64,000 bases of DNA, taken from assembly GCA_963752895.1 (NCBI GenBank), contig CAVWAE010000020.1:60878-124877 (forward strand). The letters run 5' to 3'. Shown one piece after another: positions 20,094 to 48,526 of the stretch; position 1 is the stretch's first letter, and each line of letters opens with the position of its first letter. Made by a program: the position numbers and the translations under genes. Below the pieces are notes generated by a model. That model saw only the letters and a list, made by a program, of their open reading frames with translations, made no database searches and was not told the origin of the DNA. Source of the DNA: an uncultured Alphaproteobacteria bacterium. GTDB taxonomy: Bacteria; Pseudomonadota; Alphaproteobacteria; Rhodobacterales; Rhodobacteraceae.

Positions 20094-20113
20094 GTCGGAA
20101 CCTCTGAACAGGG

Positions 20114-21115
20114 TCAGGACGCGGTGCCGGACGGCGCCGCGCGGTGGGTGAACAGGGAGCGAAAGTGGTGGCGCAGGAGATCGCGCCCGAAGCGGCTGGT
20201 ATTGCGGTAGCGCACGGATTTCGGGTTCACGAGACGGCGCAGCATCCACACGCCCTCGCCCGCCAGCAGCGCCAGGGTGACCGCGATGGTATAGGGCAGC
20301 CCGTAGTTCTTGCGGAAATAGTAATAGCGCGAGTCGAACCAGTAGTTCGGCACCCGTTCCCAGCGGTCCATGCCGGTGGCGACCCCGCCGATATGCACGA
20401 CGCGGCTGTCGGGCAGCGACCAGATCTCCCACCCCGCCCGCTTGCAGCGCAGGCACAGGTCGGTTTCCTCGAAATAGAGAAAATAGGTCTCGTCGAAGAG
20501 CCCGACCTCGTCGAGCATCGCCTGGCGGAACATCACCGAGGAACCCGACACCCAGTCGACTTCGACCGTGTTCAGAGCGACCGGCGACGGGTCGCGACCG
20601 CGTTCGAGGAGTTTCGAGAACACCGCGGTGCGGGCCGCGTCCTCGAACTCGCGCACCATGTTGGGAAAGCGGAAAGCGCCGTAGGCGGGCGCGCCGTCGG
20701 GCGTCAGGATCAGGCTGCCGGCGACACCGACTTTCGGGCGGGCCTCGAAGAAATCGACCAGCGCCCGGATCGCGCCGGGTTCCGGCACCGCGTCGGGGTT
20801 GAGCAGATAGATGTAGTCGGGTTTCTCGCCCGAGGTGAGACCCGCCCGAATTGCGAAATTATTGCCCGAACCGAAGCCGCCGTTGTGGCCGGCGCTGTAG
20901 ACATGGATCCGGCCGTCCTCGGCCCAGCCCCTTTCGGCAGAGGCCGCCAGCAGGTGCTCGAGGGAGCCATCCTGAGAATCGTTGTCGACGATGGCGATCT
21001 CGCCGCCGAGATCCGCCATTTCGCGCAACGCCCCCTCCGCGGCCTTCACCGCCAGTTCGGGCGTGCGGTAGTTGAGGATGACCGTCAGCACCTTGGGTTC
21101 AGACAACAGGTTCAC
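20114..21115 (-). CDS. Family 2 glycosyltransferase
   Basis: KVLTVILNYRTPELAVKAAEGAL..IAIVDNDSQDGS..GHNGGFGSGNNFAIRAGL..YIYLLNPDAV. The GTG start is immediately preceded by TAAGGAG, which includes the PKS stop. Confidence 0.85.
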   Translation of the reverse strand: MNLLSEPKVLTVILNYRTPELAVKAAEGALREMADLGGEIAIVDNDSQDGSLEHLLAASAERGWAEDGRIHVYSAGHNGGFGSGNNFAIRAGLTSGEKPDYIYLLNPDAVPEPGAIRALVDFFEARPKVGVAGSLILTPDGAPAYGAFRFPNMVREFEDAARTAVFSKLLERGRDPSPVALNTVEVDWVSGSSVMFRQAMLDEVGLFDETYFLYFEETDLCLRCKRAGWEIWSLPDSRVVHIGGVATGMDRWERVPNYWFDSRYYYFRKNYGLPYTIAVTLALLAGEGVWMLRRLVNPKSVRYRNTSRFGRDLLRHHFRSLFTHRAAPSGTAS

Positions 21116-21118
21116 TCC

Positions 21119-27436: not shown

Positions 27437-27582
27437 TGTCGAATTCCTGTTCCCCCAATACAGGCCAACTGCATAACAAATACCTGCGTGGAACAGTAGC
27501 TGGCCTCCGGCAAGATACCGCCGCAAGTCGGGTAAGTATTTGAAAAATTAGTGAAAACAGATTATTCACGAAATAGGATACA

Positions 27583-35500: not shown

Positions 35501-36319
35501 GCCCGCGAGGTTGGCGGTGAAATTCAGCGGTGCCTCGGGCGTCGCGCGGTTCAGCGTGACCCGGCCGCCGATCCTGTCGGCGCCATCGGTCGCGAGCGCG
35601 AGATCGGCGACATAGTCGTCGATCGGGCCGGTGCCTTTGAGCTCGAACGACAAGGGCGCGCCGCCGGGCAGGCTGGTGAGCGTGGCGACGATGCCGTTCG
35701 CCCCCTCGTCGAGGTCGAGATCGAGCGCGAGCACGCCTGTGTCGTTGGCGTAGGCCGCCGCCACGGAGAACAAGCCCCTCTGGCCGTCGATGCGTTCGAG
35801 CGTCAAGGCGGCATCTCCGGCGCCCCCTTCGAGCTGGCCGCGCCCCTCCAGCCGAAGCTCGGCGGGCACGCCCAGAACCGGCTCGCCCAGCACCAGGCTG
35901 GCGGCGGAGATCTCGCCGATTTTGATCGAGACCGGCAACTCCGGCAGGGCGAAATCCGAGGTCGCGGGTTGCGGCCCGTCGTTCACCGCGACCGGACGGC
36001 GGACGATCTCGATCCGCTCGGCGGTGAGCGAGTCGATCTCCAACCGGCCCTTCAGCAGCGCCGAGCGGGTCCAGTCGAGCTCGGCGCCTTCCAGCGTGAG
36101 CCAGACTCCGTCGTCGTCGGCCACCGTGAGCCGTTCCATCGTCGCGCGCGACGACAGCGCGCCGGCGAAACCGGTGACCTCCACGGTGCGGCCCGCAGCC
36201 GACAGGTTGTCCTGCAGGAAGTTTTCGAGGATGGATTTGTCATCCGCCGCCTCGTCCTGGGCATATGCCGGCAGGACCGCGAACAGGGCCGCGGCAAGGA
36301 AAGGGGCAAACCGGGTCAA
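32567..36319 (-). CDS. tamB: Translocation and assembly module subunit TamB (DUF490 family)
   Basis: About 1250 aa. TTG start overlaps the tamA TGA (TTTTGA). N-terminal anchor LTRFAPFLAAALFAVLPAYA, long repetitive beta-rich body, C-terminal ..LELSAGTYISDNIYTDVTVGADGRAEVNLNLTLTPNVTARGSVGSDGTTGIGVYFEKDY. Confidence 0.85.
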   Translation of the reverse strand: MTRFAPFLAAALFAVLPAYAQDEAADDKSILENFLQDNLSAAGRTVEVTGFAGALSSRATMERLTVADDDGVWLTLEGAELDWTRSALLKGRLEIDSLTAERIEIVRRPVAVNDGPQPATSDFALPELPVSIKIGEISAASLVLGEPVLGVPAELRLEGRGQLEGGAGDAALTLERIDGQRGLFSVAAAYANDTGVLALDLDLDEGANGIVATLTSLPGGAPLSFELKGTGPIDDYVADLALATDGADRIGGRVTLNRATPEAPLNFTANLAGDPTALMAPDYRDFFGDDVALAVEGQRAADGRLDLSRLDIAADALNLSGNAVIAPGGWPERVSLTGAVVAPDGGPVRLPFGGDPSWVDRLGLTFAYDASLGEDWQADITLDGFSRPDVQLTRATLSGRGTLTPGTDGALPAFGGHVDLTATGLTGAPGSATAALGPNLSGSFDLARTSGETLAFSNLTLGGADYRLAGDVTLDTVVEKLDLVAEGAVLLTADDLSRFGPLSGQDLSGAARLRIEGNAALPGGPFDIDITGTGQDLGIGMAEVDRLFAGASTLAISAARTAEGTEIERLDIRAPGAAATGTGWLAKTGSQLALRLDLPNAALVAEGLDGPLSVQATALQRGRDWDLSLDASGPGGARVNFSGLAETRPRGVVKVTGELSGAIARLSGWSGLARRDIAGSATFSAAGTFDPETGRFVLEGDASGQDLDFDLGAADRLTAGASTASFEIRRKNDGVLIVDQFSLVTPELSLNAKGRAKEDLPRVTFDGRLRDLGQFVPGLPGAFTLSGDAKLSEAGWRVKASGDGPGGTVIKASGDIDGDGQSANLTLTGRVPLALVNDSIAPRALSGMAAFDLRLDGPFALGSISGTLTTRGARAALPTVGLALDPLSVDVSLAAGQATIDANAKVSTGGRLFVRGPVALTAPFLGNLAIDLQNVRLRDESLYDLTLGGNLAMSGALAGGASITGGLQLGTVELRIPETGFGAGGSLDGLTHVGAPPAVRATLARAGQTGSGSGGGSGAEYGLGISIAAPSAVFIRGRGLDAELGGSLTVGGTTRDVVTTGGVSLIRGRLDILGNRLALTEGTATLRGSLDPSLRLLAETDVDDVSVRIAVEGFASNPSVTFSSSPDLPEDEILARLVFGRGLDQISAFQALKLASAIATLSGKGGAGTIGRLREGFGLDDLDVTTNAEGDLELSAGTYISDNIYTDVTVGADGRAEVNLNLTLTPNVTARGSVGSDGTTGIGVYFEKDY

Positions 36320-38118
36320 AACGCCTGCCCGATCCCGATGTAGAGCTGGGCATCCCAGACGCTGTCGAGGCTGGCGCCCGGACCCGAGACCGGCACGGCC
36401 ACGTCGAGGCGGATCGGCCCCAGCCCGGTGTAGTAGCGCAGGCCCGCGCCGGCCCCGATCTGCCAATCGGCATTGTCGAGGAAGGTGTCGGCCCCGACCC
36501 TCCCCGCGTCGGCAAAGGCGACGAGGCCGATCGTGTCGGTCACCTTGTAGCGCAGCTCGGCGGAGCCGCCGAGGAAGGTGCGCCCGCCGATCGTGTCGCC
36601 GCCGCCGAGATCGACCCCCATCGATTGGTAGGGAAAGCCGCGTACGGTGCCGCCGCCGCCGGAGAAGAACAGGAAGTCGGACGGCACGTCTTCCGAGGAC
36701 GGCGCCGCGACATAGCCCACTTGGGCGCGGCCGGCGAGCACGAACCGACCGTCGGCGAAGCCGCGGTAGGCGCGCGCGTCGACATAGGTGCGGGCGCCGA
36801 AGGTCTCGCCGTTGAACTCGTAGAACGGCTCGGCCTCGGCCATGACATAGGTGCCCGTGGTCGGGTCGAGCTGGTTGTCGCGCCGGTCCCAGGTGAGGTC
36901 TGCGGGCAGCGAGAGGAAGGAAAAGCGCCGTTCTCCGAGATCGTCCTCGGTGATCGAGTAATGGTAGGCGAGCGCGGCTGAGCCCGCGAGTTCGGGGGTG
37001 AAATAGCGCTGCACCCCGGCCCCGCCACCGCCGCCGTAGAGCAGGTAGCCGGGATCGTCGAGGTAGCTGCCTTCGAGGAACACGAAGGCATCGTTGTCGG
37101 TGCCGAAGGCGGCGGGGATGTCGAGCCGGGCAAGCGCCTCGGCATCCATGCCGTCGAGCGTGCCGTCGATGCCGGAGATTTCGCCGTCTAGCCGAAGACG
37201 CTCGGCGCCGCCGAGCAGGTTGCGGTGCATCCAGAAGCCCGACAGCGACAGCCCTTCGAGCGACGCGAGCTCGGCGCCGAACCCGAAGCGGCGGGGTTTT
37301 TCATCCGTGAGCGCCACGGCGACATCCATCGTGTCGCCGGGGCCGAGGGTTTCGGCCTCGGTGAGCGCGACCGAGGCGAAGGCACCGGTGCGCCGCAGCC
37401 GTTGCGCGGCCAGGTCGACCTCGTCGGGAGAATAGACCTCGCCGGTCGGGAGCCCGGCGATCCGCTGGACCCGCTCCGCGCGCACCGCCGACGGGGTGGT
37501 CTGGACGAGGTCGCCGAGTGTGACCAGCGGCCCCGGCGTGAGACGGACGTTGGCATCAAGCGTCTGGTTGCGGTGATCGGCGGACACGCTCTGCGCCGCC
37601 ACCGCCGCCTTGGCCCGGCCGGCATCGCGCCAGTCGGACACCGCGGCGTCGACCGCGCCCTGCACCGCCCTGCTGTAGGCGGGCGCGCCGGCCTCGACCG
37701 CCGAGGGCGCGGTGGAGCCAGGGGCGCGCGGCCCGATCGCCACCTTGCCGAACTGGAACTGCGGGCCGGGATCGACCGCGACCGTGACGGAGCCGATCTG
37801 AGCGGGCGCGGCAAACGGCGACAGGGCCGCGGCTTCGCGGCCATCGACCCGGATCCGGACAACGCCGCCGTAATAGCCCTCGCCGTAGAGCGCGTTGACG
37901 AGGCGGGCGTAGTCGGCCCGCGCCGCCGCCAGCACATCGCGCGGGTCGCGGTCGGCCGTATCCTTGCCGGCATAGAGCAGCGATGCGCCCTGAAGCGCCG
38001 CGGTCACGGCCTTGTCGTCGCCCTTGACCATGAAATCGAGCTGTTGCGCAGGCGCAGGCAAAGCCGCCGCGGCCAGCGCGACGCCCAGAAAGCGAGGAAG
38101 CAATGTCAAATTGGCCAT
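36316..38118 (-). CDS. tamA: Omp85-family outer-membrane protein TamA
   Basis: Start at MANLTLLPRFLGVALAAAALPAPAQ (signal peptide). POTRA-like N-terminal half, then a beta-barrel ending ..LDSVWDAQLYIGIGQAF (terminal aromatic residue). Confidence 0.85.
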   Translation of the reverse strand: MANLTLLPRFLGVALAAAALPAPAQQLDFMVKGDDKAVTAALQGASLLYAGKDTADRDPRDVLAAARADYARLVNALYGEGYYGGVVRIRVDGREAAALSPFAAPAQIGSVTVAVDPGPQFQFGKVAIGPRAPGSTAPSAVEAGAPAYSRAVQGAVDAAVSDWRDAGRAKAAVAAQSVSADHRNQTLDANVRLTPGPLVTLGDLVQTTPSAVRAERVQRIAGLPTGEVYSPDEVDLAAQRLRRTGAFASVALTEAETLGPGDTMDVAVALTDEKPRRFGFGAELASLEGLSLSGFWMHRNLLGGAERLRLDGEISGIDGTLDGMDAEALARLDIPAAFGTDNDAFVFLEGSYLDDPGYLLYGGGGGAGVQRYFTPELAGSAALAYHYSITEDDLGERRFSFLSLPADLTWDRRDNQLDPTTGTYVMAEAEPFYEFNGETFGARTYVDARAYRGFADGRFVLAGRAQVGYVAAPSSEDVPSDFLFFSGGGGTVRGFPYQSMGVDLGGGDTIGGRTFLGGSAELRYKVTDTIGLVAFADAGRVGADTFLDNADWQIGAGAGLRYYTGLGPIRLDVAVPVSGPGASLDSVWDAQLYIGIGQAF

Positions 38119-38326
38119 GGCCGGATCCCACTCAGAACGAAGGGCCGAACCCGCAGCGCTTGTGCCCCTGCCGACTCGGACAGGGACCCAACGCTCTTGA
38201 TCAGCCCCGGGATCCATTATGTGCGCGCAGCGGCACAGGTTACAACTGCTCGTTAAGTCCCGTGGCGGCAATCGGCGAAAACGTGACACCCGCGCGCGGC
38301 AACCGGGTGGCGCCTGGAGAATGCGG

Positions 38327-38929
38327 TCAGAGGGGCAGGCTATGCGCGACGAGGATTGCCCAGATTTCGCGGTTGATCGCCTGGATGTCGGAAAGCGCCT
38401 GGTCGAACTCTGCGAGCGTGGCGCCGTCGAGCGATGTTTCGCCGCCGAGGCGCAGCCCTTTCTTGCGATCGGCGATCCGCATCTCGATGGCTCGCACTGG
38501 CCCGCCCGCGGCGTCGAAGGCATAGATCGAGTGGTTGAGGCGGTTGCGCAGGCCCGAAAGCCGCTTCATCCGGCCCGACACGTCGAGGATCTTCGCCCGG
38601 GCCTCTGCCTCCACCGGGCAGGGCTCTCGCTTGGCCAAGCGCTCGACCATGTCGAGCCGGGCCCGGCTGGTGTTGAGCGTGAGATGGAGGATCGTGGCGG
38701 TTTCCTTGTCGCAGGGCACCAGCCCCGCGAGCAGGTGGATCAGCAAGCTCTCGGTATTGGTCCAGGCATAATTCATCCGGCCGATACGGAGCAGGAACGC
38801 GTCGAATTCCGGCGGCGGCACGGCCCCGCCAACGCCCGCAGGCGTCCCGGGTGAGGCGGCGGGCGGGCGCTCAGCCACCTTGGCCATTCTGGTGATACCA
38901 GACCGCCGCCTCGGTGCGGTTCCGGACAC
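38327..38929 (-). CDS. Hypothetical helical protein, start uncertain (38929, 38887 or 38821)
   Basis: Only ORF-level support, plus its position between luxR and tamA on the same strand. No motif recognised. Confidence 0.4.
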   Translation of the reverse strand: MSGTAPRRRSGITRMAKVAERPPAASPGTPAGVGGAVPPPEFDAFLLRIGRMNYAWTNTESLLIHLLAGLVPCDKETATILHLTLNTSRARLDMVERLAKREPCPVEAEARAKILDVSGRMKRLSGLRNRLNHSIYAFDAAGGPVRAIEMRIADRKKGLRLGGETSLDGATLAEFDQALSDIQAINREIWAILVAHSLPL

Positions 38930-39635
38930 CGAGTTTGCCGATGATCCGGTGCATGTAGAGCTTGACGGTGTGCTCCGACAGCTCCAGCTCGCCCGCGATC
39001 AGCTTGTTGGGACTTCCGGCCGCGGCCATCGCCAGCACCTCGGCCTCGCGCGGCGTCAGCCCGTCTGGCCCCCGGGTCTCGCGCGCAGCGCTCGCATGCC
39101 CCGCCGTTTGGTCGCCAGACGCGGGCGCAGTGGCTGGCGCCGGGTCGGCCGCGATATTGGCCTCAGGCTCAGGCCGCGCCTGCAACAGCTCCGGCGGCAC
39201 GTAGTGGCCCCCGGACTGGATCACCTGCAGGAGCCGCACCCAGTTGGTGACATTGGTGTTCATCGGCAACAGGCTCACCCGCCATTGCAGAAGTTCGTCG
39301 CAGATGTCGGCGAACAGCGCGCAGGCCATGGTCTCGTTTTCGAAGGCGATCGCGAGCCGTTGTTTGGGCAGGTAATCCGCACCCTGCTCAAGCGCGCTCA
39401 GAAGCGCCCGCGCGCAGCTTTCGTGCACCACGACCATATATGCGGGTTTGACGGTTCCGGTTTCGGTCATCCGCGCGAAGCGCAACGCATCCAGGTCGGG
39501 GACCCGCTGCGTCGGGCCGTCGAACTCGTTTTCAACCGTGCGCAGCGCAACTCTCGAAAACATCGCGCTGGGCCCTACGAAGTAAACGCCACCAACGGAT
39601 GATCCGGCCGTAGCGGCCACATTTTGATAAGTCAT
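38871..39635 (-). CDS. LuxR/FixJ-family transcription regulator with degenerate (pseudo-) receiver domain
   Basis: C-terminal HTH LTPREAEVLAMAAAGSPNKLIAGELELSEHTVKLYMHRIIGKLGVRNRTEA. The N-terminal domain has receiver-like topology but lacks the acidic pocket (VYFVGPS, YMVVVHES, SLLPMN). Confidence 0.8.
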   Translation of the reverse strand: MTYQNVAATAGSSVGGVYFVGPSAMFSRVALRTVENEFDGPTQRVPDLDALRFARMTETGTVKPAYMVVVHESCARALLSALEQGADYLPKQRLAIAFENETMACALFADICDELLQWRVSLLPMNTNVTNWVRLLQVIQSGGHYVPPELLQARPEPEANIAADPAPATAPASGDQTAGHASAARETRGPDGLTPREAEVLAMAAAGSPNKLIAGELELSEHTVKLYMHRIIGKLGVRNRTEAAVWYHQNGQGG

Positions 39636-39812
39636 TTCCCACCCCCGTGGGCGCCGGAAACAGCGCCCGGATAAAAACGAGACGTCCGACTGGTTCTCGC
39701 GAAAAGCGACACCACACCACGGCCCGCGAGATCAAACTCAATACACTCAATCGATCAAAATCACTCGAATGATAGCACCAAACTAACCTTTTGAATATAA
39801 GTCATAGGGACT

Positions 39813-39857
39813 ATTTTATCGTGATAGAACAATCACTCACGAATATCGCGATAAAAT
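39813..39857. promoter_or_regulatory. 14-bp inverted repeat (13/14 match), candidate operator in the luxR / acidic-protein divergent region
   Basis: ATTTTATCGTGATA (39813-39826) .. TATCGCGATAAAAT (39844-39857). Each arm contains a TATCG(C/T)GATA palindrome. This is the most AT-rich patch of the window. Confidence 0.45.
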
Positions 39858-40304
39858 GCCGCAGGCACGCCCCACCGCGGCACCCGCCCCTCCGCGCGCA
39901 GGGGATCGCACCGACCCCAGCAGTCGCACACCCCCGCGCCGCGACGCCCTGCGCCGCGCGACCGCCCGGAAAAAGGGCGTTTTCGGCAAAATCCTGTCCA
40001 CAAGGCCCGCGGGCGGTCCTTCGACGCAGGACGTACTCCCAATGATCTAGTCGCAAACATTTTGCCCTTATCTTCTGGATTGTCCCGAAACGAAAAACAA
40101 ACTTTCGGGGAGTCCCCATTCGGCGATCACCCGAATTCGCAACTGTGAAAGACCCATGATTCGGCGCAGCATTTTCCTGTCGGGATATTCTCTCGACGAC
40201 CTTTGAATCCGCTCCCGGGTCCGACCCTATCGGGGTTCGTGCCAGATTGCGGACGCCTTGGGGGGCGTATCCGGGAACGATCAGGGGTGGAGGGGAGACC
40301 TCAC

Positions 40305-40343
40305 ATGACGAAACCGGTCCGACAGCAGCCGTTTGCGAGATGA
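40305..40343 (+). other. 12-codon upstream ORF (MTKPVRQQPFAR) with a strong Shine-Dalgarno
   Basis: GGTGGAGGGGAG lies 7 nt before the ATG, and the stop is 24 nt before the 40367 ATG. Sequence-level evidence only. Confidence 0.25.
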
Positions 40344-40366
40344 GTGACGGCATCGGACCATGAACC

Positions 40367-41503
40367 ATGGAGAGTAAGATGGCGTTCGGATCAAATAACA
40401 ACGGTATTGGCGGGCTCCCGGGGATGATGCATTTCCCGATACCCGACGATCAGGAACAGCAGCAGCAGCAGCGGCAGCAGGAACAGCAGCAGCAGCGCGA
40501 GCAGCAGCAGCAGCGCGAGGAACAGACGCAGTCGCAAGACTCGACGTCTGACCAGACGCAGACGCAAACCGGTGACAACTCGAACAACAACAGCAACGAG
40601 AACATGTCGGCCACGGACACTTCAACTGTGAGCGACACGTCCACCGGCAGCACCACGTCCACGGACAGCACCACGACCACGGACACGACCACCAGCAGCG
40701 ATCTGCAAGCCAAGCTGGACAGCCTGTCCGACAACGACAACCTGAACGAGAACACGAACGACTCGACCAGCACAACTGACGTCGATGTGGACGTGGATCT
40801 GGGCCTCGACAGCCTGCCTGACGACAACGACTGGGTCGATGTCGATTTCGGCGACAGTTCCAGCATGGGCGATATCTTCGCCGCGAAAGGCGATCTGGAC
40901 TACGACCCGGGCAATGACATCGAGATCAGCGACTTCTTCGACGGCGCGCTCGACGGTGCCGGCAATGACGTAGGCCAGTCGTTCATCGGCTCGAACAACC
41001 TGGTCGACAACGACACGCTGTCGAATGTTCAGCTCACGAACAGCGCCCCGTTCACCGCGACCGCGACGGGTGGCACCGCGACCGCCGATGAGGGGATCGA
41101 GCTCGAGAACGAACCCTATGGCGAGGTCGAAGCGGAAGCCGAGGCCGAGGCCGAAGTCGACGGCGGCGGCGGCCAATTCGGCGGCTTGCCGCCTCTCGTT
41201 GCGATGCGGGAAGGTGGTGGCGGCCGGCCTGGTAACGACGAAGAGGGCGCCCGAGGCGAAGTCGACGGCAATGTCAGCGCCGATGGCGAAGCCGAAGTCG
41301 AACTCGGCGATTGGGGTTCGGGCAACGGCCGTGACGGCATTGTCGAGGGCAACTCGCTCGCCGACGCGGACGCAACGCTCGATATCTCGGCGTTCAACCA
41401 GAATATTGTTCTGGGCGCGAACGTACTCGGCAACTCTGTCGATACCACCGTCGTCGGTGGCAACATGGACATGAGCTACGACATGGACGACAGCGTCAGC
41501 TGA
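40367..41503 (+). CDS. Highly acidic, Gln/Ser/Thr/Asp/Asn-rich low-complexity protein, probable type I secretion substrate (non-RTX)
   Basis: 378 aa with no signal peptide. Contains QEQQQQQRQQEQQQQREQQQQREEQ, TSTVSDTSTGSTTSTDSTTTTDTTT, EAEAEAEAEV and a C-terminal NQNIVLGANVLGNSVDTTVVGGNMDMSYDMDDSVS. Alternative ATG at 40379 behind GGAGAG. Sits upstream of the T1SS genes. Confidence 0.6.
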   Translation: MESKMAFGSNNNGIGGLPGMMHFPIPDDQEQQQQQRQQEQQQQREQQQQREEQTQSQDSTSDQTQTQTGDNSNNNSNENMSATDTSTVSDTSTGSTTSTDSTTTTDTTTSSDLQAKLDSLSDNDNLNENTNDSTSTTDVDVDVDLGLDSLPDDNDWVDVDFGDSSSMGDIFAAKGDLDYDPGNDIEISDFFDGALDGAGNDVGQSFIGSNNLVDNDTLSNVQLTNSAPFTATATGGTATADEGIELENEPYGEVEAEAEAEAEVDGGGGQFGGLPPLVAMREGGGGRPGNDEEGARGEVDGNVSADGEAEVELGDWGSGNGRDGIVEGNSLADADATLDISAFNQNIVLGANVLGNSVDTTVVGGNMDMSYDMDDSVS

Positions 41504-41603
41504 GGTTCGCCGAGGCCCAAAAAGAGATGGCGTACCCCCAACCGCCCCACAGTCCCCGGGGGTTCGTCGAAACTGCCTGCGGCTTGCCAGGGCCGCAGGC
41601 GCG

Positions 41604-41633
41604 CCGGGTCCGGCCCGTTCAGGCCGGGCCCGG
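41604..41633 (+). other. Stable 12-bp GC hairpin between the two acidic-protein genes
   Basis: CCGGGTCCGGCC-cgttca-GGCCGGGCCCGG (one G-U pair), with no U-tract after it. Confidence 0.4.
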
Positions 41634-41690
41634 AGCACCCCGAAACGGAAAGATGCGCCTCAGAGCGCTTCGGGTTGAAAGGGGGTAACA

Positions 41691-43967
41691 ATGCTTGACA
41701 GACATTCCGAGATCATCGCGCATTTTATTGGCCAATTCGACCAGATCGCAGAACAGTCGCTTTACCGGCAGCAATACGATGCCTTTCGCGCCCAGCAGCG
41801 ACCCCAGGAGGAGCCCGGCCCCCTGCTCAACGTGAACGTGCGGGTCACCTCCGAGCTGCTGCCCGACAAACATGTCGCCGGTGGGGTCCGGTGGTACGAG
41901 CAGAAGCCTGCGCCACAGCGCGACCAGGAGGACCTCGAGGTTACCGCCCGCGACACCGGGCCCGTTCTGGACGTTCCGGCAGCGACCTTCGCCGAAACCT
42001 TCGTCGAACTCGAGTTCCAGCTTGAACTTCCGTATTTCGCGTTCGAATTCACGCCGGGATTGCCGGAAACGCCGGTTTTCGAGTTCGGGCCGCCCGGCAA
42101 CGTGATGATTTTCGCGTATCAACAGAACATATTGCAGGACAACGACCTGCTGCTCACCCGTCCGCTGGACCTTTCCCCGGAACTTGCCGCCAGTCGCTCC
42201 GACGCGGCCCTCGATGACGGCCTGATGACGCTTGCGGCCACCGCCGACGCACTCGTGCCCGGCGACTTCACCCTCGGCCGCGAGATCGAAGATACCGCGG
42301 CGCGGATCGAGACCCTGCGCGAGACCTTCGCGGGCGTCGACCCGGCAGAGGCCCCGGACGGGGCGACCGTCACACTTGTCAGCCAGGCCGACGGGACGCT
42401 GCCCGAAAGCGGTATTCTCATCGACGGCGAAGAGGCGGAGAGCCTGCCCACCACGCTCGAAGAGGCGCTGGACGCACGCGGCTACGGCGACAACGCAGAA
42501 GACGGGGATGCGGACGGCAGTGACGGCGAAGACGCCGATGAAGACACCGACTCCGGAAGCGGCGAAGACGCAGGCGGCGACGCTGTGTTGGTCGCGACGA
42601 TCACCATCGGCCCGGACGACACCGGTCCGCACGCGGAGGCGATGCAACTGATCGAGACCGGCGGCAACCTCCTGATGAACAACGCCGTTTCCGGCTTTGC
42701 GCCGGTCGACGCGCCGCTGATCGCGGTCGGGGGTCAGGCGATGTCGCTCACGGTCATCAGCCAGGTCAACGTGATGAGCGACCGCGACACGCTGGTCGGA
42801 CCGGACGACGCCGTCTGCACCGGCGCCGACCACCCGTTCCAGGATGCGGCCTCCGAGGGTCACAACATCGCCAGCGTCAAATGGGAAGGCGTGAGCCGGG
42901 GCCATCCGGAGAACGCCGGTAAAGAGAACGCAAACGGTGCCAGCAACGGCAATGCCAATGGCCCCGGGAATGCCAACGGCAAAGGGATCGGCATCGGGAA
43001 TGGCAACGGCAATGCCAAAGCCAACGGCCACGGCACCGATGAAGACGACGACAATGGCCCGATAGCATTCGCGATCACGGAAATCGACGGCGACCTGGTG
43101 CTGACCACCCACGTCGTCCAGCTCAACCTGGTGACCGACAACGACGTGATCACCTTCGAGACGACGGTCCATGAGGTCGAGATCGGCACCGGTGGCAACG
43201 TTTCGGTCGATGTGCTGAACGCGCTCGGGTTTCAGAACGGGTTCGACATGATCCTGGTCGGCGGCGACATGCTGAACCTGGTGTCGATCTCGCAGCTGAA
43301 CATGATTTTCGACAACGACCTGGTCGCCGATGGCGACGGTGTCGGCGGCGACATCGACACTTCGGGCAACCTGCTCTGGAACGAGACCCAGGTCACCTGG
43401 CACGGGATCGACACCGCCGCCGAAGAGGTCTCGGACAGCGCCGCTGAGGCGCTCGAGACGATGGCCGGCGGCCAGCTCGATTTCGAGGCGCTGAAGGGCG
43501 AAAGCCTGCTCGACGGCAAGGAAGTGCCGCTTCTGCTCACGATCGGCGGCAACCTGGTTTTCGACTACCGGCTGGAACAGATCAACATCCTGGCCGATGC
43601 GGACACCGTGCAGCTGTTCGCCGACATGGCCCTGGAAAACGGCTTCAACCCGGTCGACGTGGCGACCGGCGACAACCTGCTCGCCAACGTGGCGAGCCTC
43701 GATATCCACGGTACCGACAGCACGATCATGGCGTCGGGCGGCGTCTTCTCCGACTTGGTGATCCACCAGGCCGGCATGTACGACACCGACGACACACCAC
43801 AGGATCTGGGTGGCGCCGGATCGGACCTCGCGAGCGAGGCGGTGGTGTTCCTGGCGGACGGCATGATCGACGACGGCCACGGGATCGAACCCGGCGGCGG
43901 CGAGGTGATCGTCGACACCGGCGGCGGCTCGGGCACCTTTGACACGCTGGGCGGCGTGGTTGCGTGA
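41691..43967 (+). CDS. Large acidic repeat protein, probable type I secretion substrate (non-RTX)
   Basis: 758 aa with no signal peptide. Five Q-x-N-h-h-x-D-x-D motifs, an Asp/Gly/Glu-rich linker, an Asn/Gly-rich tract and a C-terminus ..GGGSGTFDTLGGVVA. GGGGG Shine-Dalgarno before the ATG. The T1SS ABC gene follows after 49 nt. Confidence 0.65.
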   Translation: MLDRHSEIIAHFIGQFDQIAEQSLYRQQYDAFRAQQRPQEEPGPLLNVNVRVTSELLPDKHVAGGVRWYEQKPAPQRDQEDLEVTARDTGPVLDVPAATFAETFVELEFQLELPYFAFEFTPGLPETPVFEFGPPGNVMIFAYQQNILQDNDLLLTRPLDLSPELAASRSDAALDDGLMTLAATADALVPGDFTLGREIEDTAARIETLRETFAGVDPAEAPDGATVTLVSQADGTLPESGILIDGEEAESLPTTLEEALDARGYGDNAEDGDADGSDGEDADEDTDSGSGEDAGGDAVLVATITIGPDDTGPHAEAMQLIETGGNLLMNNAVSGFAPVDAPLIAVGGQAMSLTVISQVNVMSDRDTLVGPDDAVCTGADHPFQDAASEGHNIASVKWEGVSRGHPENAGKENANGASNGNANGPGNANGKGIGIGNGNGNAKANGHGTDEDDDNGPIAFAITEIDGDLVLTTHVVQLNLVTDNDVITFETTVHEVEIGTGGNVSVDVLNALGFQNGFDMILVGGDMLNLVSISQLNMIFDNDLVADGDGVGGDIDTSGNLLWNETQVTWHGIDTAAEEVSDSAAEALETMAGGQLDFEALKGESLLDGKEVPLLLTIGGNLVFDYRLEQINILADADTVQLFADMALENGFNPVDVATGDNLLANVASLDIHGTDSTIMASGGVFSDLVIHQAGMYDTDDTPQDLGGAGSDLASEAVVFLADGMIDDGHGIEPGGGEVIVDTGGGSGTFDTLGGVVA

Positions 43968-44016
43968 TGACTGGCAGGCGGCCCGGGACCGGGTCACCGA
44001 TTAGGGGAGTGGGGAA

Positions 44017-45933
44017 ATGACGAGCAGGAAGGAAAAGGCGCAAACCGGCGCACCGGTGACGATTGACGCGAAGGTGAACTCCGCAGTTCCCGGGACGGTG
44101 CAAGGCGGAGGCGGCGGCGCAAAGACGCCCGGCTTCCACAAGCGCACGCAGCCGGAAGACCACACCAGGACCATGGCGCGGGTCCGGCGCCGGCTCAGCG
44201 CCAATATCGTGTTCGTCGCGCTGATGACCGTGGGCACCAACGTCTTGATCCTCGCGGTGCCGATCTATCTGTTCCAGATCTCCACCCGGGTGCTCACCTC
44301 GCGCTCGACCGACACGCTGGCGATGCTCACGATCGTCGTGGTCGGCGCGATCGCGGTGCAATCCGCGCTCGACGCCCTCAGGCGCTTCGTGCTGATGCGC
44401 ACCGCGGTCGATGTCTCGGCAAGCCTCGGCGGCGCGGTGCTGTCGGCCGCCGCGCAGGCCTCGCTGCATTCCAACGGACGCGAATACCAGGTGCTGGGCG
44501 ATCTCAATTCGCTGCGCGCCTTCCTCGTCTCGGGCACGCTTCTGGCGTTCCTCGACGTGCCCTTCACGCCGATGTTCCTGCTCGCGATCTTCCTGATCCA
44601 TCCCCAGCTCGGCGCCATCGTGATCACCACGGCGCTGATCCTCGCGCTGTTCGCCTGGATCAACCAGAAGATCACCTCCGAAGGGTTCAAGGCCGCCAAC
44701 GCGGCCCAGACCCGGGCCAACCTCCATCTCGAATCGATGTCGCGCAACAGCCAGATCATCAATGCGATGGCGATGATCCCCGAGGCGGTGCGGATCTGGG
44801 GCGCCGACATGGTCGGCTCGCTGACCGCGCAGGTGAAAGCCCAGGACCGCAACATCATGACAGCCGCGCTCTCGCGCTTCTTCCGCCTGCTCGCCCAGAT
44901 CGGGATGCTCGGCTGGGGCGCCTGGCTGGCGCTCCAAGGCGAGCTCACCGGCGGCATGGTGATCGCCGCCTCGATCGTCGCAGGCCGCGCGCTTGCCCCG
45001 ATCGAAGGCGCGATCGAGGGCTGGAACAGCTTTCTCGTGGCGCGCGGCGCCTATGACCGGGTGTCGGCGCTGCTCGCCCGGTCAGCGAAGCGCAACGACA
45101 AGCTGCGGCTGCCGAACCCGGAGGGCCGGCTCGATGTCGAGCGGCTGCTCTACGTGCCCCAGGGCACCAAGCACGTGGTGCTGAACGCGCTCACCTTCAG
45201 CCTTGGCGCGGGCGAAAGCCTTGCGGTGATCGGCAATTCCGGCGCCGGCAAGACGACGCTCGGCAAGATGCTGGTGGGCTCGCTGATGCCGACGTCGGGC
45301 GCGGTGCGGCTCGACCTCATGGACCTGCGCAACTGGGAGCCGCGCCAGCTCGGCGAGATCGTCGGCTACCTGCCGCAGGACGTGCAGCTCTTCCCCGGCA
45401 CGATCAAGGCCAATATCGCGCGGATGCGTCCCGAGGCGACCGACGAACAGATCCACCGCGCCGCCGTGCTCGCGGATGTCCACGAGATGATCGCCTCGCT
45501 GCCACAGGGCTATGAAACGGTGGTGGCCGCCGACGGCGCGCCGCTCTCGGGCGGCCAGAAGCAACGCATCGGCCTGGCCCGTGCCTTCTTCGGCAACCCC
45601 AAGTTCCTCGTGCTCGACGAGCCGAACTCGAACCTCGACACCAACGGCGACCAGGCGCTGGTGCGTGCGCTCGGCCACGCCCGGGCCAATGGCATCACCG
45701 CGGTGGTCATCACTCAGAAACCGGCCCTGCTCACCGCCGTGGACAAGATCATGGCGCTCAACAATGGCAACATCTCCATGTTCGGCTGGCGCGACCAGGT
45801 GCTCGCCGAGCTCCAGAAGTTGAAACAGGCCAAAGCCGCCCGTCTCGCCGCCGCCAAGGCCAAGGCCGACGTGGCGGCCGCCGCGGGGTCCGCCGTCGGC
45901 GCACCCGCCGCACCAGAGGGAGCGATCGCATGA
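44017..45933 (+). CDS. Type I secretion system ABC transporter (PrtD/AprD type, no C39 peptidase domain)
   Basis: TMD ..LILAVPIYLFQISTRVLTSRSTDTL.., Walker A GNSGAGKTTLGKML, signature LSGGQKQRIGLARAF, Walker B FLVLDEPNSNLD. Confidence 0.88.
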   Translation: MTSRKEKAQTGAPVTIDAKVNSAVPGTVQGGGGGAKTPGFHKRTQPEDHTRTMARVRRRLSANIVFVALMTVGTNVLILAVPIYLFQISTRVLTSRSTDTLAMLTIVVVGAIAVQSALDALRRFVLMRTAVDVSASLGGAVLSAAAQASLHSNGREYQVLGDLNSLRAFLVSGTLLAFLDVPFTPMFLLAIFLIHPQLGAIVITTALILALFAWINQKITSEGFKAANAAQTRANLHLESMSRNSQIINAMAMIPEAVRIWGADMVGSLTAQVKAQDRNIMTAALSRFFRLLAQIGMLGWGAWLALQGELTGGMVIAASIVAGRALAPIEGAIEGWNSFLVARGAYDRVSALLARSAKRNDKLRLPNPEGRLDVERLLYVPQGTKHVVLNALTFSLGAGESLAVIGNSGAGKTTLGKMLVGSLMPTSGAVRLDLMDLRNWEPRQLGEIVGYLPQDVQLFPGTIKANIARMRPEATDEQIHRAAVLADVHEMIASLPQGYETVVAADGAPLSGGQKQRIGLARAFFGNPKFLVLDEPNSNLDTNGDQALVRALGHARANGITAVVITQKPALLTAVDKIMALNNGNISMFGWRDQVLAELQKLKQAKAARLAAAKAKADVAAAAGSAVGAPAAPEGAIA

Positions 45934-47300
45934 ACGCCCAGACTGCCCTCCCCGTCCCGACTGCCCTGGCGCCGGCAGCGCCGGCCCCGGCCGAGAGCTG
46001 GGACGCCAATGTGCCGCGCCGGGTGCGCTATCACGTGATCGCCGGGCTGATGATCATCCTCGCCGCCTTCGGCGGGTTCGGCACCTGGGCGGTCACCGCA
46101 CCGCTCGCTGCCGCGATCATGTCGCCCGGCTCCTTCGTCGCCACCGGGCGCAACAAGCTGGTGCAGCACCTCGAAGGCGGGATCATCGCCGATCTCAGCG
46201 TCGCCGAGGGCGACCGGGTTGTCGCCGGCCAGCCGATGATCCGGCTCGACGAGACCTCGGCGCTCGCCACCCAGCGGGCCCTGTTCCTGCGCAGGGTCCG
46301 CCTCGAAGCGATGGAGGCGCGGATCCTTGCGGAATACGAGGCCGAGCCCGAACTCGTGTTCCCGCTCCACCTCATGGAGAGCCGGATCGACCCCGAGGTC
46401 GCCACCATCCTCGACAACCAGCTCTTGTCCTTCACCGTCGCTCGCTCGCAGCTCGAAAACGACATCGACCTGATCGAGCGAAATGTCGCGGTCATGGAGC
46501 AGCGCATGCGCGGCTACGAGGCCCAGCGCGACGCGCTGTCGCGCCAGATCGCGCTGCTGTCGGAGGATCGCGTGTCCAAGGCCCAGCTCCTCGACAAGGG
46601 GTTGATCCGCCGGTCCGAATTGAACGCGCTGGACCGGGCGCTGGCCGAAGCGGAAGGCCAGTTCGGCCGGATGGAGGCGGAAATCGCCGAATCGCTGGAG
46701 TTGATGGCCAAGTACGACGCCCAGAAACGCCAGGCGATCGACACCTACCGCCAGGCCGCGCTCGACGAGCTCGAAAGCGTCCAGGCCGAGCTCGACACCG
46801 TGCGCGAAAAGGAACGCGATGCGCAATCGATCCTTCGCCGGGTCGTGATCGAGGCCCCGGTTTCGGGCACCGTCGTCCGGCTCAATTATTCGAGCGTCGG
46901 CGGCGTGATCGAGGCCGGCAAAGTGATCGCCGAAGTGTTGCCGACCGACGTGCCGCTCATCATCGAGACGATGATCGCGCGCACCGACATCGACGCGGTC
47001 AAGGTCGGCCAGCCCGCGGGCGTGATGCTGACCGCGCTCAACAGGCGCACCACCCCGGTTCTCAACGGCGAGGTCTTCTACCTGTCCGCCGATGCGATCG
47101 TCCAGAACGGCGCCGAGGACCAGGAGGTCTACATCGCGCGGATCCAGATCCCGGTGTCCGAACTCGACCGGGTGTCCGGTTTTGCGCCGGTCCCGGGCAT
47201 GCCGGTGCAGGTGATGATCCAGACCGCGGAGCGCACCTTCCTCCAATACATCATGAAACCGGTAACGGACTCGATGCAGCGCGCATTCCGGGAGAACTAG
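45930..47300 (+). CDS. Type I secretion membrane-fusion (HlyD-family) adaptor
   Basis: ATGA overlap with the ABC gene. N-terminal TM IAGLMIILAAFGGFGTWAV, lipoyl-like GIIADLSVAEGDRVVAGQPMIRLD, long coiled coil, C-terminal ..PGMPVQVMIQTAERTFLQYIMKPV. Confidence 0.88.
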   Translation: MNAQTALPVPTALAPAAPAPAESWDANVPRRVRYHVIAGLMIILAAFGGFGTWAVTAPLAAAIMSPGSFVATGRNKLVQHLEGGIIADLSVAEGDRVVAGQPMIRLDETSALATQRALFLRRVRLEAMEARILAEYEAEPELVFPLHLMESRIDPEVATILDNQLLSFTVARSQLENDIDLIERNVAVMEQRMRGYEAQRDALSRQIALLSEDRVSKAQLLDKGLIRRSELNALDRALAEAEGQFGRMEAEIAESLELMAKYDAQKRQAIDTYRQAALDELESVQAELDTVREKERDAQSILRRVVIEAPVSGTVVRLNYSSVGGVIEAGKVIAEVLPTDVPLIIETMIARTDIDAVKVGQPAGVMLTALNRRTTPVLNGEVFYLSADAIVQNGAEDQEVYIARIQIPVSELDRVSGFAPVPGMPVQVMIQTAERTFLQYIMKPVTDSMQRAFREN

Positions 47301-47307
47301 GCGGGCC

Positions 47308-47340
47308 GTGGGATTGTTTCTGGATGGGAAACAATCCCAC
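47308..47340. repeat. Perfect 13-bp-arm palindrome GTGGGATTGTTTC-N7-GAAACAATCCCAC, 8 bp after the hlyD-family stop
   Basis: Read directly. No T-tract follows it. Shares the core TTGTTTC-N7-GAAACAA with 48808-48832. Confidence 0.9.
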
Positions 47341-47512
47341 CCTCATTTCGGATTGTTGCCAAAGACCGGTGGCTTTCCACCCGGCGCCATTGGCGCCCGG
47401 ACCAATGGCACCCTCCCCGGAGCAGGTCTTTCCAAGCCGAAAGAGGTCGGGCCGGACGGGTGGCGGCGCCAGCCCCCCGGCGAACCGGGCCATGCGCGTG
47501 CGGCTCGGCCGC

Positions 47513-48526
47513 TCAGAAAATCGTTGGATGTGGCCGCTGGCGGGCGCGGATGACGGTGCCGGTCGCGCTGAGCAGACCAGCCGCATGCGCGGCGATGGCG
47601 GTGTCCTGCGCCCCGGTTCCGGCAAGATCGCAGATCGTGATCTCCTCAGGCGAACGACGGCCCGGACGGCGGCCGGTGACGATGTCGCCAAGCTCGATCG
47701 GGGTCTCGTCCGTGAACAGCCCGGCCTCCCGTGCCGCGCGCAATTCGCCCGCGGTGGCGCATTGATCGACGCGGTCGCAGACGTAGAGATCGGCGCGGGC
47801 GAGGCCGGCCGGCTCGATCTCGTTCCGTTTGAGCTGATCCGTCCCGACGGCGGTCACGTGCAGTTCCTTGTGCAGCCAGGCCGCCTTCAACACCGGCGAC
47901 TGCGCCGAGGTGGCCGTGACCACGAGTTGCGACCGCTTCACCAGGATTTCCGGATCGGTCGTGACCTCGACCTCCACGTCGAGGCTCGCGGCCAGGTCCG
48001 CCGCGCAGGCGGCGGCATTGTGCGGGTTGCGGCCATAGACCAGCACCCGCTCGAAGGGCCGCACAAGGCGGGCCGCCTTGATCTGCAGGCTGGCCTGGGG
48101 CCCGGCACCGATCACGCCCGCCGTGGTCACGTCCTCGGGTGCGAGGTAGCGGGCGGCGACGGCGCCGGCGGCGGCGGTGCGCAGGTCGGTGAGATACCCA
48201 TTGTCGAGGAAGACGGCCTCGACCGCCCCGGTCTCGGCCGAGAGTTGAACGACCAGCCCGTCGCGGCCGGGCCGGCGCACGTCCGGCGTGTCGCGCAGGC
48301 CCGACAGGATCTTGACCGCGTAGCTTTTCAGCCCGTCGATCCGGGCGGTTTCCACATCGACGGAGCCTTCCCCGTCGGCGAACGGCATGGACAGGCCCGG
48401 CGGCATCGAAACATTGCCGGTGGCGAGGGCCGCGAAGGCCCGTTCAACCACCTCGATCGTCTCGAGATCCATCGTGACCGCCTGGCGCAACTCGGTTTCG
48501 GTCACGATCCGGATGTCATGCACCAT
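47513..48526 (-). CDS. Ornithine cyclodeaminase / mu-crystallin family protein
   Basis: 337 aa; ..YLTDLRTAAAGAVAARYLA..AGVIGAGPQA (Rossmann GxGxxA)..VVTATSAQSPVL..HVTAVGTD. Confidence 0.8.
   Translation of the reverse strand: MVHDIRIVTETELRQAVTMDLETIEVVERAFAALATGNVSMPPGLSMPFADGEGSVDVETARIDGLKSYAVKILSGLRDTPDVRRPGRDGLVVQLSAETGAVEAVFLDNGYLTDLRTAAAGAVAARYLAPEDVTTAGVIGAGPQASLQIKAARLVRPFERVLVYGRNPHNAAACAADLAASLDVEVEVTTDPEILVKRSQLVVTATSAQSPVLKAAWLHKELHVTAVGTDQLKRNEIEPAGLARADLYVCDRVDQCATAGELRAAREAGLFTDETPIELGDIVTGRRPGRRSPEEITICDLAGTGAQDTAIAAHAAGLLSATGTVIRARQRPHPTIF

Follow-up and report, generated by a model that had tools for sequence, protein, structure and literature searches.

A conserved six-gene locus with a PrtD-type exporter and two acidic, non-RTX candidate substrates in Rhodobacterales and Hyphomicrobiales

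A probable six-gene type I secretion module

The stretch of DNA analyzed here (64,000 nt of contig CAVWAE010000020.1 from an uncultured Rhodobacteraceae bacterium; hereafter the window) was found to carry four consecutive genes, designated A, B, ABC and MFP, which code for two strongly acidic proteins, a PrtD-type ABC exporter and a HlyD-family adaptor, and which are preceded by a divergent regulator gene and the gene for a small conserved protein. We consider it probable, at roughly 0.6, that these six genes constitute a dedicated type I secretion module that exports B and probably A, and that ToaDE of Rhizobium leguminosarum has its Rhodobacterales counterpart in this module. Comparative sequence evidence gives good support to a type I cassette carrying non-RTX cargo, and the site of action of the exported product would most likely be the cell surface or the extracellular matrix. 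A preliminary description of the window had already proposed a dedicated PrtD/HlyD cassette with two acidic, non-RTX cargo candidates; this proposal is now backed by synteny, by the C-terminus of B and by the lack of any curated match for the two proteins.

All four open reading frames (ORFs) were found on the + strand where they had been described: A at 40367–41503 (378 aa; no curated family), B at 41691–43967 (758 aa; an acidic beta-repeat protein and the main cargo candidate), ABC at 44017–45933 (638 aa; PrtD-type ABC exporter) and MFP at 45930–47300 (456 aa; HlyD-family type I periplasmic adaptor). B and ABC are separated by 49 nt, and the ABC stop codon and the MFP start codon overlap as ATGA. 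Third-position guanine-plus-cytosine (GC) contents of 0.80–0.90 were obtained for all four ORFs, values typical of the genuine genes of the window (about 66% GC overall) and different from those of overlapping antisense ORFs. The gene sizes, the positions, the 49-nt gap and the ATGA overlap reported previously were confirmed. Since a GGAGAG Shine-Dalgarno sequence directly precedes an ATG at 40379, inside the annotated gene A, the true start of A is probably 40379 and not 40367. On the − strand are located the GerE/LuxR-type regulator gene (38871–39635, 254 aa, PF00196) and the gene for the small conserved protein (38327–38887, about 186 aa when counted from a Met codon at 38887, with the mechanical ORF extending to 38929), which overlaps the GerE stop codon by 17 nt.

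The same six genes were recognized in Thioclava pacifica and Devosia geojensis, each having the genes for a protein of about 165 aa and for GerE on one strand and those for an A-like protein, B, ABC and MFP on the other; the six products are mutually homologous among the window, Thioclava and Devosia. A tblastn survey across 80 reference loci of Rhodobacterales and Hyphomicrobiales revealed that the order A-B-ABC-MFP was kept in 78 of them, with B being present in 80, A in 79, ABC and MFP in 78 each, the small protein in 71 and GerE in 56, and the absences fell at truncated contigs. The module behaves as a single-copy, vertically conserved locus in two orders, and no further candidate cargo gene was conserved in it among the 80 loci. 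The earlier delimitation of the cassette as four genes plus a regulator holds for the genes that it named, but the protein of about 165 aa had gone unmentioned, and the real unit comprises six genes.

Composition and family of the two cargo candidates

Proteins A and B both have an isoelectric point (pI) of 4.05 and a composition rich in D, G, S/T, N and E; their net charges are −68 and −112 and their Cys counts 0 and 1, respectively. Hydrophobic segments were absent and neither a signal peptide nor a membrane span was found in either protein, in agreement with their initial characterization as very acidic proteins lacking signal peptides. Scans with Pfam and NCBIfam did not rise above noise for either protein, and thus the statement that they match nothing recognized was confirmed for curated families; TFIIA, Utp14 and DIP1281 came up as matches, all below cut-off, and were rejected as low-complexity noise. 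Searches against PDB sequences returned noise only with the A-family profile and no match with the B-family profile. The core GGxGxD of the RTX nonapeptide does not occur in A and occurs a single time in B, PF00353 was unmatched at E ≤ 0.1, and the core was absent from 160 of 167 B-family members, so that the cargo candidates were correctly described as being without RTX nonapeptides.

Only 21 relatives of B were returned by a word-indexed search. An exhaustive profile search brought the B family to at least 741 clusters (50% identity), of which 516 were found at E ≤ 1e-30, and most matched over the full length; a scan of one genome per species detected B relatives in at least 169 reference species. 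The nearest relative is that of Rhodobacteraceae bacterium UBA9292 (74% identity). In the databases, the members are named "hypothetical protein" or, in UniRef, "Type I secretion protein". The family medians, calculated from 167 diverse members, were a pI of 4.05 and 0 Cys.

Repeats, predicted fold and termini of B

Three conserved parts were distinguished in B. The N-terminus (41691–41795, + strand) comprises about 35 residues with the pattern M-x-L-D-x-x-T/S-E-x-I-A-H-F-I-G-x-F...R-x-R-x-x-Y-x-x-F, in which I9, H11, F12, G14, F16 and R26 were invariant in the family alignment; the H, F and G were 100% conserved among the 135 of the 167 members possessing the anchoring motif [AS]HF[IVL]G. Residues 4–12 and 18–34 are predicted to be helical in the AlphaFold model.

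The repeat region (42087–43796, + strand; residues about 133–702) consists of alternating "a" rungs (T-G-G-N-h-h-x-N) and "b" rungs (h-h-V-G-G-x...Q-x-N-h-h-x-D-x-D), broken up by disordered loops that are acidic or rich in N and G. Five copies of the b motif, Q.N[ILVMF][ILVMF].D.D, were found between residues 146 and 638, compared with 0.001 expected from shuffled sequences, and four copies of the a motif, compared with 0.06 expected. The G-N-N and Q-N-D-D columns of the rungs were invariant in the family alignment. A repeat proper to B had been placed at 42121–43604 in the preliminary description, and the range of residues of the b motif agrees with that placement; its excess over shuffles shows that the repeat is real. 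Linkers of B are variable and acidic, and are disordered in the model.

The structure of B was modeled with AlphaFold2 on an alignment of 19 sequences. Although the mean predicted local distance difference test (pLDDT) score was 60.7, the repeat core reached 70–93 and was all-beta, with strands repeating in a short-long-short order, long strands of 11–15 residues and a repeat unit of about 25–50 residues; the last 58 residues or so were disordered. Foldseek searches with this model returned nothing at E ≤ 0.001, the best E-values being 0.19 in PDB and 0.09 in BFVD. The non-significant top entries were mostly beta-helices or solenoids (SufD, curli CsgA, FapC, tapirins and tailspikes), a recurrence which is to be taken as a hint, not a result. 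For the beta-solenoid fold that was to be looked for, the model thus showed all-beta repeats, and Foldseek no significant structural match. By analogy to RTX proteins, a calcium-binding beta-solenoid is plausible for B.

At its C-terminus, B ends in FDTLGGVVA, as had been noted. The last eight residues (43941–43964, + strand; DTLGGVVA in the window) are a variant of the family consensus D-V-M-Q-T-M-L-A. The pattern D-[VI]-[ML]-Q-[TS]-[MV]-L-A was almost invariant and fixed at the exact C-terminus among the 167 members compared: Asp was at −8 in 97%, M/L at −6 in 95%, and M/V, L and A at −3, −2 and −1. This conservation suggests that the octapeptide is probably the type I secretion signal of B.

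Protein A

Family alignment of A revealed a variable, low-complexity N-terminus rich in Q, N and T, and two conserved acidic blocks at residues about 150–245 and 314–368, having the motif W-G-S-G-N-G-D-D-G...A-F-N-Q-x-I-V-x-G-A-N-x-L-G-N-x-V-D-T-x-V-V-G-G. We regard A as a candidate second cargo or a candidate partner of B, and its export is less certain than that of B because it lacks the C-terminal motif of B. The only similarity detected between the two proteins was that of A residues 339–369 to one rung of B (residues 490–529), for which hhalign gave E = 0.02 and a probability of 2%; homology between A and B is thus not established. It was also noticed that the Rhizobium orthologues of A (P0249–P0263) are named "fibrinogen-binding protein" by NCBI. 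This name was not adopted, as no domain match supports it, and it is probably an artefact of low-complexity repeats rich in T, D and N.

Exporter and adaptor

The ABC protein scored 677.3 bits with TIGR01842 (PrtD-type type I permease/ATPase; cut-off, 510.15) over residues 62–599, and the MFP protein scored 372.9 bits with TIGR01843 (cut-off, 208.65). In the PDB, the best match of ABC was Aquifex aeolicus PrtD (5L22), with E = 2.4e-103 over the full length, ahead of HlyB at 3e-56. The expected membrane segments are present in ABC, and MFP has a single N-terminal hydrophobic segment (residues about 32–50) corresponding to one membrane span. No C39 peptidase or C39-like domain was reported for ABC by the Pfam scan, so that the assignment to a PrtD-type ABC protein without C39 and a HlyD adaptor stands, both curated cut-offs having been exceeded. 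ABC scores as a protein exporter far above the models for glucan, lipid and drug exporters.

Preceding the transporter domains, an N-terminal extension (residues 1–58; 44017–44190) was identified in ABC, consisting of a Gly run followed by F-H-K-R-x-x-P (FHKRTQP in the window; residues 40–46; 44134–44154, + strand). In 73 of 82 loci, F-H-[KR]-[KR]-x-x-P was located exactly 42 residues before the motif of the first transmembrane segment. The Gly-rich tract in front of it varies from tens to hundreds of residues, with 200–460 residues preceding the motif in rhizobial ABC proteins, whereas canonical PrtD has no such extension. It is possible that the FHKR extension is a cargo-docking site. In S. 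meliloti Ak57 (L084, 9055–11248, CP090106.1), the extension is apparently missing, with stop codons upstream of MAAVRRNM; this ABC gene is not in the distributed gene table and may be truncated or a pseudogene. CP090106.1 is a 3.7-Mb record labelled "plasmid pSymB", the size of which suggests a chromosome.

Pfam scanning of the 29 likely genes of the window revealed no member of the OEP/TolC family, in line with the earlier statement that no outer-membrane factor is linked, and no TolC-like gene was found in the neighbourhoods of the Thioclava and Devosia modules. Outer-membrane factors are often encoded elsewhere in the genome, and an unlinked gene does not exclude a working type I system.

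Probable relationship to ToaDE and comparison with other secretion systems

Four type I systems have been described in R. leguminosarum bv. viciae 3841, including toaDE (RL0072/RL0071) and tobDE, which were called "enigmatic" (PMC2275737) and which have no known substrate gene nearby (Krehenbrink & Downie 2008, PMC2275737). The module of R. leguminosarum has the same A-B-ABC-MFP order as that of the window, and its ABC protein is 81% identical to that of S. meliloti; for ToaD, 80% identity to the S. meliloti counterpart was reported (PMC2275737). In complete Rhizobium genomes, the locus tags of B (..._00380 and ..._00470) correspond to about gene 76–94, a position that fits RL0073 and not RL0622–0623. 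Because of the agreement in ABC identity and of this locus-tag position, the module is probably the counterpart of ToaDE, and A and B would be its unrecognized candidate substrates. The preliminary description had drawn its Rhizobium parallel with PrsDE; judging by the same identity figures and tag position, ToaDE is probably the proper counterpart, and PrsDE (RL3658/RL3657) lies at a locus separate from the Rhizobium orthologue of the module.

In the 2008 paper, the two genes upstream of toaDE went unrecognized as substrate candidates; the present analysis nominates them and adds their families and motifs, together with the small protein, the regulator and the leader RNA. The arrangement also differs in that the small gene is beside GerE in the window and after MFP in Rhizobium. 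Literature searches on RL0073, RL0074 and toaE returned nothing beyond the 2008 paper (PMC2275737), and those on Rhodobacteraceae secretomes with type I secretion and RTX returned nothing.

With PrtDEF, AprDEF and HasDEF, which export proteases, lipases and haemophores, the module shares the ABC subfamily without a C39 or C39-like domain and the HlyD-type adaptor. In protease substrates of the PrtD class, the C-terminus consists of hydrophobic residues after an acidic one; the cargo candidates here are acidic and without signal peptide, and B likewise has a hydrophobic extreme C-terminus preceded by an acidic residue. Differences are that they lack RTX nonapeptides as well as any enzyme or haemophore domain, that the exporter bears the Gly-rich FHKR extension, and that the outer-membrane factor gene is unlinked. 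RTX proteins would follow the same logic by analogy, having acidic, Cys-poor repeats with turns rich in Asp, Gly and Asn, a neighbouring C-terminal signal, export in the unfolded state and folding outside the cell; type I substrates are known to carry an uncleaved C-terminal signal and to undergo calcium-driven folding outside the cell (PMC3034196). In B, however, the tandem GGxGxDxUx repeats are missing, and the unit is of about 25–50 residues with long strands.

PrsDE with the Rap and Ply proteins and ExpD1D2 with ExpE1 are also alphaproteobacterial PrtD-like exporters of acidic, partly non-RTX proteins, which act on or in the exopolysaccharide (EPS) matrix (PMC2275737), but in neither A nor B did Pfam reveal a cadherin-like (Ra/CHDL), glycanase or RTX-like domain, and the module shows no conserved linkage to EPS genes. 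The LapA-type adhesins differ from the module, in which no LapG-like protease, LapD-like cyclic di-GMP receptor or Big/VCBS-type repeats are present. Curli and Fap fibres resemble B in having strand-turn-strand repeats with Gln/Asn ladders, and in having a minor subunit that is similar to a single repeat of the major one; they are, however, exported by Sec plus CsgG or FapF and not by a type I route, and A and B had no Pfam match.

Proposed mechanism and alternative explanations

In the mechanism that we propose, the GerE-type regulator would act at the long control region to switch on the A-B-ABC-MFP operon, and a hairpin in the leader before A would probably add post-transcriptional control. 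ABC and the HlyD adaptor would recruit an unlinked TolC-like channel, and B, probably together with A, would be exported in one step, C-terminus first and without a signal peptide. Conservation of the octapeptide suggests that it is through this sequence that the exporter would recognize B, and the cytoplasmic FHKR extension, specific to this exporter family, may take part. Given the strong acidity, the near absence of Cys and the invariant D-x-D and G-N turns, B would stay unfolded in the low-calcium cytoplasm and fold outside, by analogy to RTX proteins, into an all-beta, probably solenoid-like body, with its Q-N-D-D repeat playing the role of the RTX nonapeptide. More speculatively, the helical-bundle protein of about 165 aa could be a cytoplasmic accessory, a cargo chaperone or a co-regulator, the N-terminus of B could serve in retention or docking, and A could template or cap B. 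An extended version of this scheme, in which the unit of about 25–50 residues, G-N...Q-x-N-h-h-x-D-x-D, is a new calcium-dependent beta-solenoid taking the place of RTX across an entire branch of type I secretion, with the octapeptide as signal and FHKR as docking site, with A and B co-assembling into an extracellular structure attached to the cell, and with the leader RNA and the helical-bundle accessory as gates of their synthesis, appears unlikely to hold in full.

Signals for type I secretion are notoriously difficult to define, and RTX proteins make up the majority of known substrates. The module would provide a large and broadly distributed family of non-RTX candidate substrates that includes those of model rhizobia and of abundant marine Rhodobacterales, with a signal at a fixed C-terminus that is open to simple deletion and fusion tests and with a matching, family-specific extension on the exporter. 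It offers a candidate, testable answer to the question raised in 2008 of what the orphan ToaDE exports, and it brings in three undescribed parts, namely the small helical-bundle family, the N-terminal region of the regulator (about 180 aa) and a covarying leader hairpin without an Rfam family. Its value lies in opening the system to experiment rather than in any new mechanism demonstrated.

Some observations weigh against export of B and A through a ToaDE-like system. In R. leguminosarum, single, double and triple mutants kept all supernatant bands, including those of toaD (PMC2275737), and the same mutants had no biofilm, glycanase, motility or symbiotic phenotype (PMC2275737); the explanations offered by the authors were that the growth conditions had been unsuitable, that the products were of too low abundance or size, or that something other than protein is exported (PMC2275737), the last of which would run counter to our interpretation. 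The orthology to ToaDE was judged by identity figures and locus-tag position, not from the sequence of strain 3841. The N-terminus of B is strongly conserved, which is unusual in a freely released type I substrate, A ends in acidic residues without the octapeptide of B, the fold of B had no significant match in PDB or BFVD by Foldseek, and no linked outer-membrane factor gene was found by Pfam among the 29 likely window genes.

The missing toaD-dependent band would also be explained by retention at the surface, as expected if A and B build an extracellular fibre, a surface layer or a functional-amyloid-like polymer with B as the major subunit, A as cap or template and the B N-terminus as anchor. 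In curli, CsgB nucleates CsgA, a model for how A might act on B. The Q/N-rich tracts of A, the invariant Q/N ladders of B and the co-inheritance of A and B in 79 of 80 loci are compatible with such a polymer, as are the alignment of A 339–369 with a rung of B (490–529), the sole similarity between the two, and the many beta-solenoids in the non-significant Foldseek lists, including CsgA, FapC and a "curlin associated" phage protein. However, the similarity of A to B is weak (hhalign probability 2%, E 0.02), and the fold matches are non-significant, with TM-scores below 0.1 and, for CsgA (8c50) and FapC, E = 0.5–4 and TM-scores below 0.15; there was no Pfam match to Curlin_rpt or Fap, and no gene for a dedicated outer-membrane pore such as CsgG or FapF was found in the module. 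A polymer of this kind is therefore doubtful. That A and B are not cargo at all, but cytoplasmic or regulatory proteins beside an ABC/MFP pair exporting a small peptide, a polysaccharide or a lipid, is less probable still. Such a role would fit the lack of any ToaD-dependent secreted protein, for which "some other component" was suggested as the exported product (PMC2275737), and the B N-terminus, which is highly conserved unlike that of most type I substrates; in the window, the module is also near polysaccharide and polyketide genes. This polysaccharide context is not conserved, however, and the TIGR01842 score is that of a protein exporter, far above the glucan, lipid and drug exporter models. 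In addition, no other conserved cargo gene is present in the module, and the pI of 4.05, the near lack of Cys, the absence of hydrophobic segments and the C-terminal motif of B fit a type I substrate.

Rhizobia are known to export bacteriocins via type I systems (PMC2275737), and the small gene accompanies the module in 71 of 80 loci, so B might be considered a secreted bacteriocin or contact toxin with the small protein as its immunity factor. We regard this as very improbable: searches of Pfam, NCBIfam and PDB sequences revealed no toxin domain, the small protein is far more conserved than B (44–68% versus 28–32%), the reverse of typical toxin-immunity pairs, its gene sits beside the regulator in Rhodobacterales, and the locus is single-copy and vertically conserved in two orders. 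Export of B, and probably of A, by a dedicated module thus remains the interpretation that we prefer.

The regulator and the small protein

The regulator matched PF00196 (GerE) at E = 4e-19 over residues 192–246, corresponding to a C-terminal helix-turn-helix, and the divergent LuxR-type gene of the preliminary description was thereby confirmed at 38871–39635 on the − strand. Its designation as a pseudo-receiver protein could not be upheld, since the N-terminal 180 residues of four regulator orthologues had no match to Response_reg (PF00072) even at E ≤ 10. By sequence, the window regulator shares with NarL/FixJ-type response regulators the GerE helix-turn-helix only.

The small protein of the window is 68% identical to the one encoded beside the module in Thioclava and 44% identical to that in Devosia, and in the same genome pairs the identity of B is 28–32%. 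Its family has at least 936 homologues, all named "hypothetical" and without a Pfam domain. An AlphaFold model (pLDDT 87) has a four-helix bundle plus a small sheet, for which a Foldseek search of PDB returned nothing significant (best E, 0.37); hydrophobic segments are absent and the protein is predicted to be cytoplasmic. The gene adjoins GerE in Rhodobacterales, Mesorhizobium and Ensifer, and follows MFP in Rhizobium, Nitratireductor and Aquamicrobium.

Beside the small gene, a gene for an Acetyltransf_6/TPR protein was found in 17 Hyphomicrobiales loci (Rhizobium, Sinorhizobium/Ensifer, Mesorhizobium, Aminobacter and Devosia), for example at L003 39–1427 (−), L070 13554–15233 (+) and L084 13338–14549 (+). 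It was absent from the window and the Rhodobacterales loci, and with a distribution restricted to these 17 loci it was not accepted as a seventh member of the module. The protein could modify the cargo.

Control region and candidate leader RNA

The intergenic control region between the regulator gene and A (39636–40366, 731 nt) has a GC content of 0.56–0.58, compared with 0.64–0.70 nearby. It contains an inverted repeat, I2, with arms ATTTTATCGTGATA (39813–39826) and TATCGCGATAAAAT (39844–39857) of 14 nt that are 93% complementary, so that an AT-richer control region with an inverted repeat is present as had been proposed. A consensus scan revealed no sigma-70-like promoter in this region, and terminator-like sites were no commoner than in shuffled sequences.

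About 260 nt directly upstream of A (40093–40351, + strand) form a leader that, in a three-way alignment of the three closest genomes (the window, L004 and L005), was more conserved than the coding sequence of A. Matches by nhmmer were at E = 1.7e-84 for the window, 1.7e-73 for L005 and 3.8e-69 for L004, and the leader carries conserved blocks such as GCGGACGCCTTGGGGGGCGTATCCGG. Folding of the whole 294-nt leader was not more stable than that of shuffles (z = −1.33), and covariation between two sequences of the leader was uninformative, support being gained for the terminal hairpin only. Operator sites or additional RNA structures may be present in the leader of about 260 nt.

At the 3′ end of the leader, a two-tier RNA hairpin of 70 nt (40297–40366, + strand) was identified directly upstream of A. 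Its outer helix is GGUCCGA/UCGGACC in the window, the inner helix CCGUU/GACGG is invariant, and the loop UGCGAGAUGAGU is conserved. Using a covariance model built from four sequences and a threshold of E < 0.1, the hairpin was found in 17 loci, comprising the window clade, Maritimibacter, Thioclava, Defluviimonas and Celeribacter; besides that of the window, the sites are L001 8371–8434, L005 5709–5776, L006 5583–5650, L022 5650–5717 and those in 12 further loci. In each case it was situated on the + strand, between the GerE gene and A, with its end 10–30 nt before the start codon. A second covariance model, built from 16 matches, recovered the same 17 strongly, together with weak candidates at the same position including one in Devosia.

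In the 16-sequence alignment, 93.7% of the cells were paired, compared with 84.6% in shuffles (0 of 500 shuffles reached the observed value), and compensatory changes occurred in 7 of 12 pairs (2 of 500 shuffles), figures that are to be read with the alignment having been fitted to the covariance model and the sequences being related; slid registers were only 23–50% paired. The sequence of the outer helix shifts between genera while its complementarity is kept, which argues for an RNA structure rather than a protein-binding DNA palindrome. We therefore put the hairpin forward as a candidate new cis-regulatory RNA element. An Rfam search in E-value mode over 38000–48000 gave two sub-threshold chance matches only, and none for the hairpin. 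The CCUC/CCCC-rich 5′ flank of the hairpin might pair with the GGAG ribosome-binding site. A short ORF starting from an ATG in the hairpin loop was rejected, this ATG being AAG in L005.

Genomic neighbourhood

In the window, the module is flanked directly by the TamB and TamA genes on one side and by a gene of the ornithine-cyclodeaminase family on the other. The genes for TamB (1,299 aa) and TamA/Omp85 (735 aa as a mechanical ORF, the true TamA start probably being later) occupy 32567–38523 on the − strand, and their adjacency to the module was observed only in the window among the genomes examined. Farther out are rhamnose and GT2 genes, a gene pair resembling those for polyketide synthases and non-ribosomal peptide synthetases, and an EPS locus with Bac_transf, glycosyltransferase, Wzz/kinase and flippase genes. 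The module had been placed between two polysaccharide loci, which is true loosely, although TamB/TamA and the cyclodeaminase gene are its direct neighbours.

The neighbours are FeoAB and an HWE kinase in Thioclava, enolase-family genes in Devosia, and hmgA and hppD in S. meliloti, and polysaccharide genes beside the module were absent in Thioclava, Devosia, Rhizobium and Sinorhizobium. With these four genera lacking that context, a functional link to polysaccharides was rejected as a conserved feature. The suggestion that the module parallels ExpD1D2/ExpE1 or PrsDE and has an EPS-organizing role was not sustained; because the polysaccharide context is not conserved, the argument for such a role fails as a general feature.

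In the window, positions 16557–27526 (− strand) contain genes for a 1,299-aa protein with formyltransferase, AMP-binding and carrier domains and for a 2,135-aa type I polyketide synthase with the domain order KS-AT-KR-DH-ACP-TE, adjoined by the rhamnose-synthesis and GT2 genes. Together, these genes look like a cluster for a glycolipid or a lipidated metabolite.

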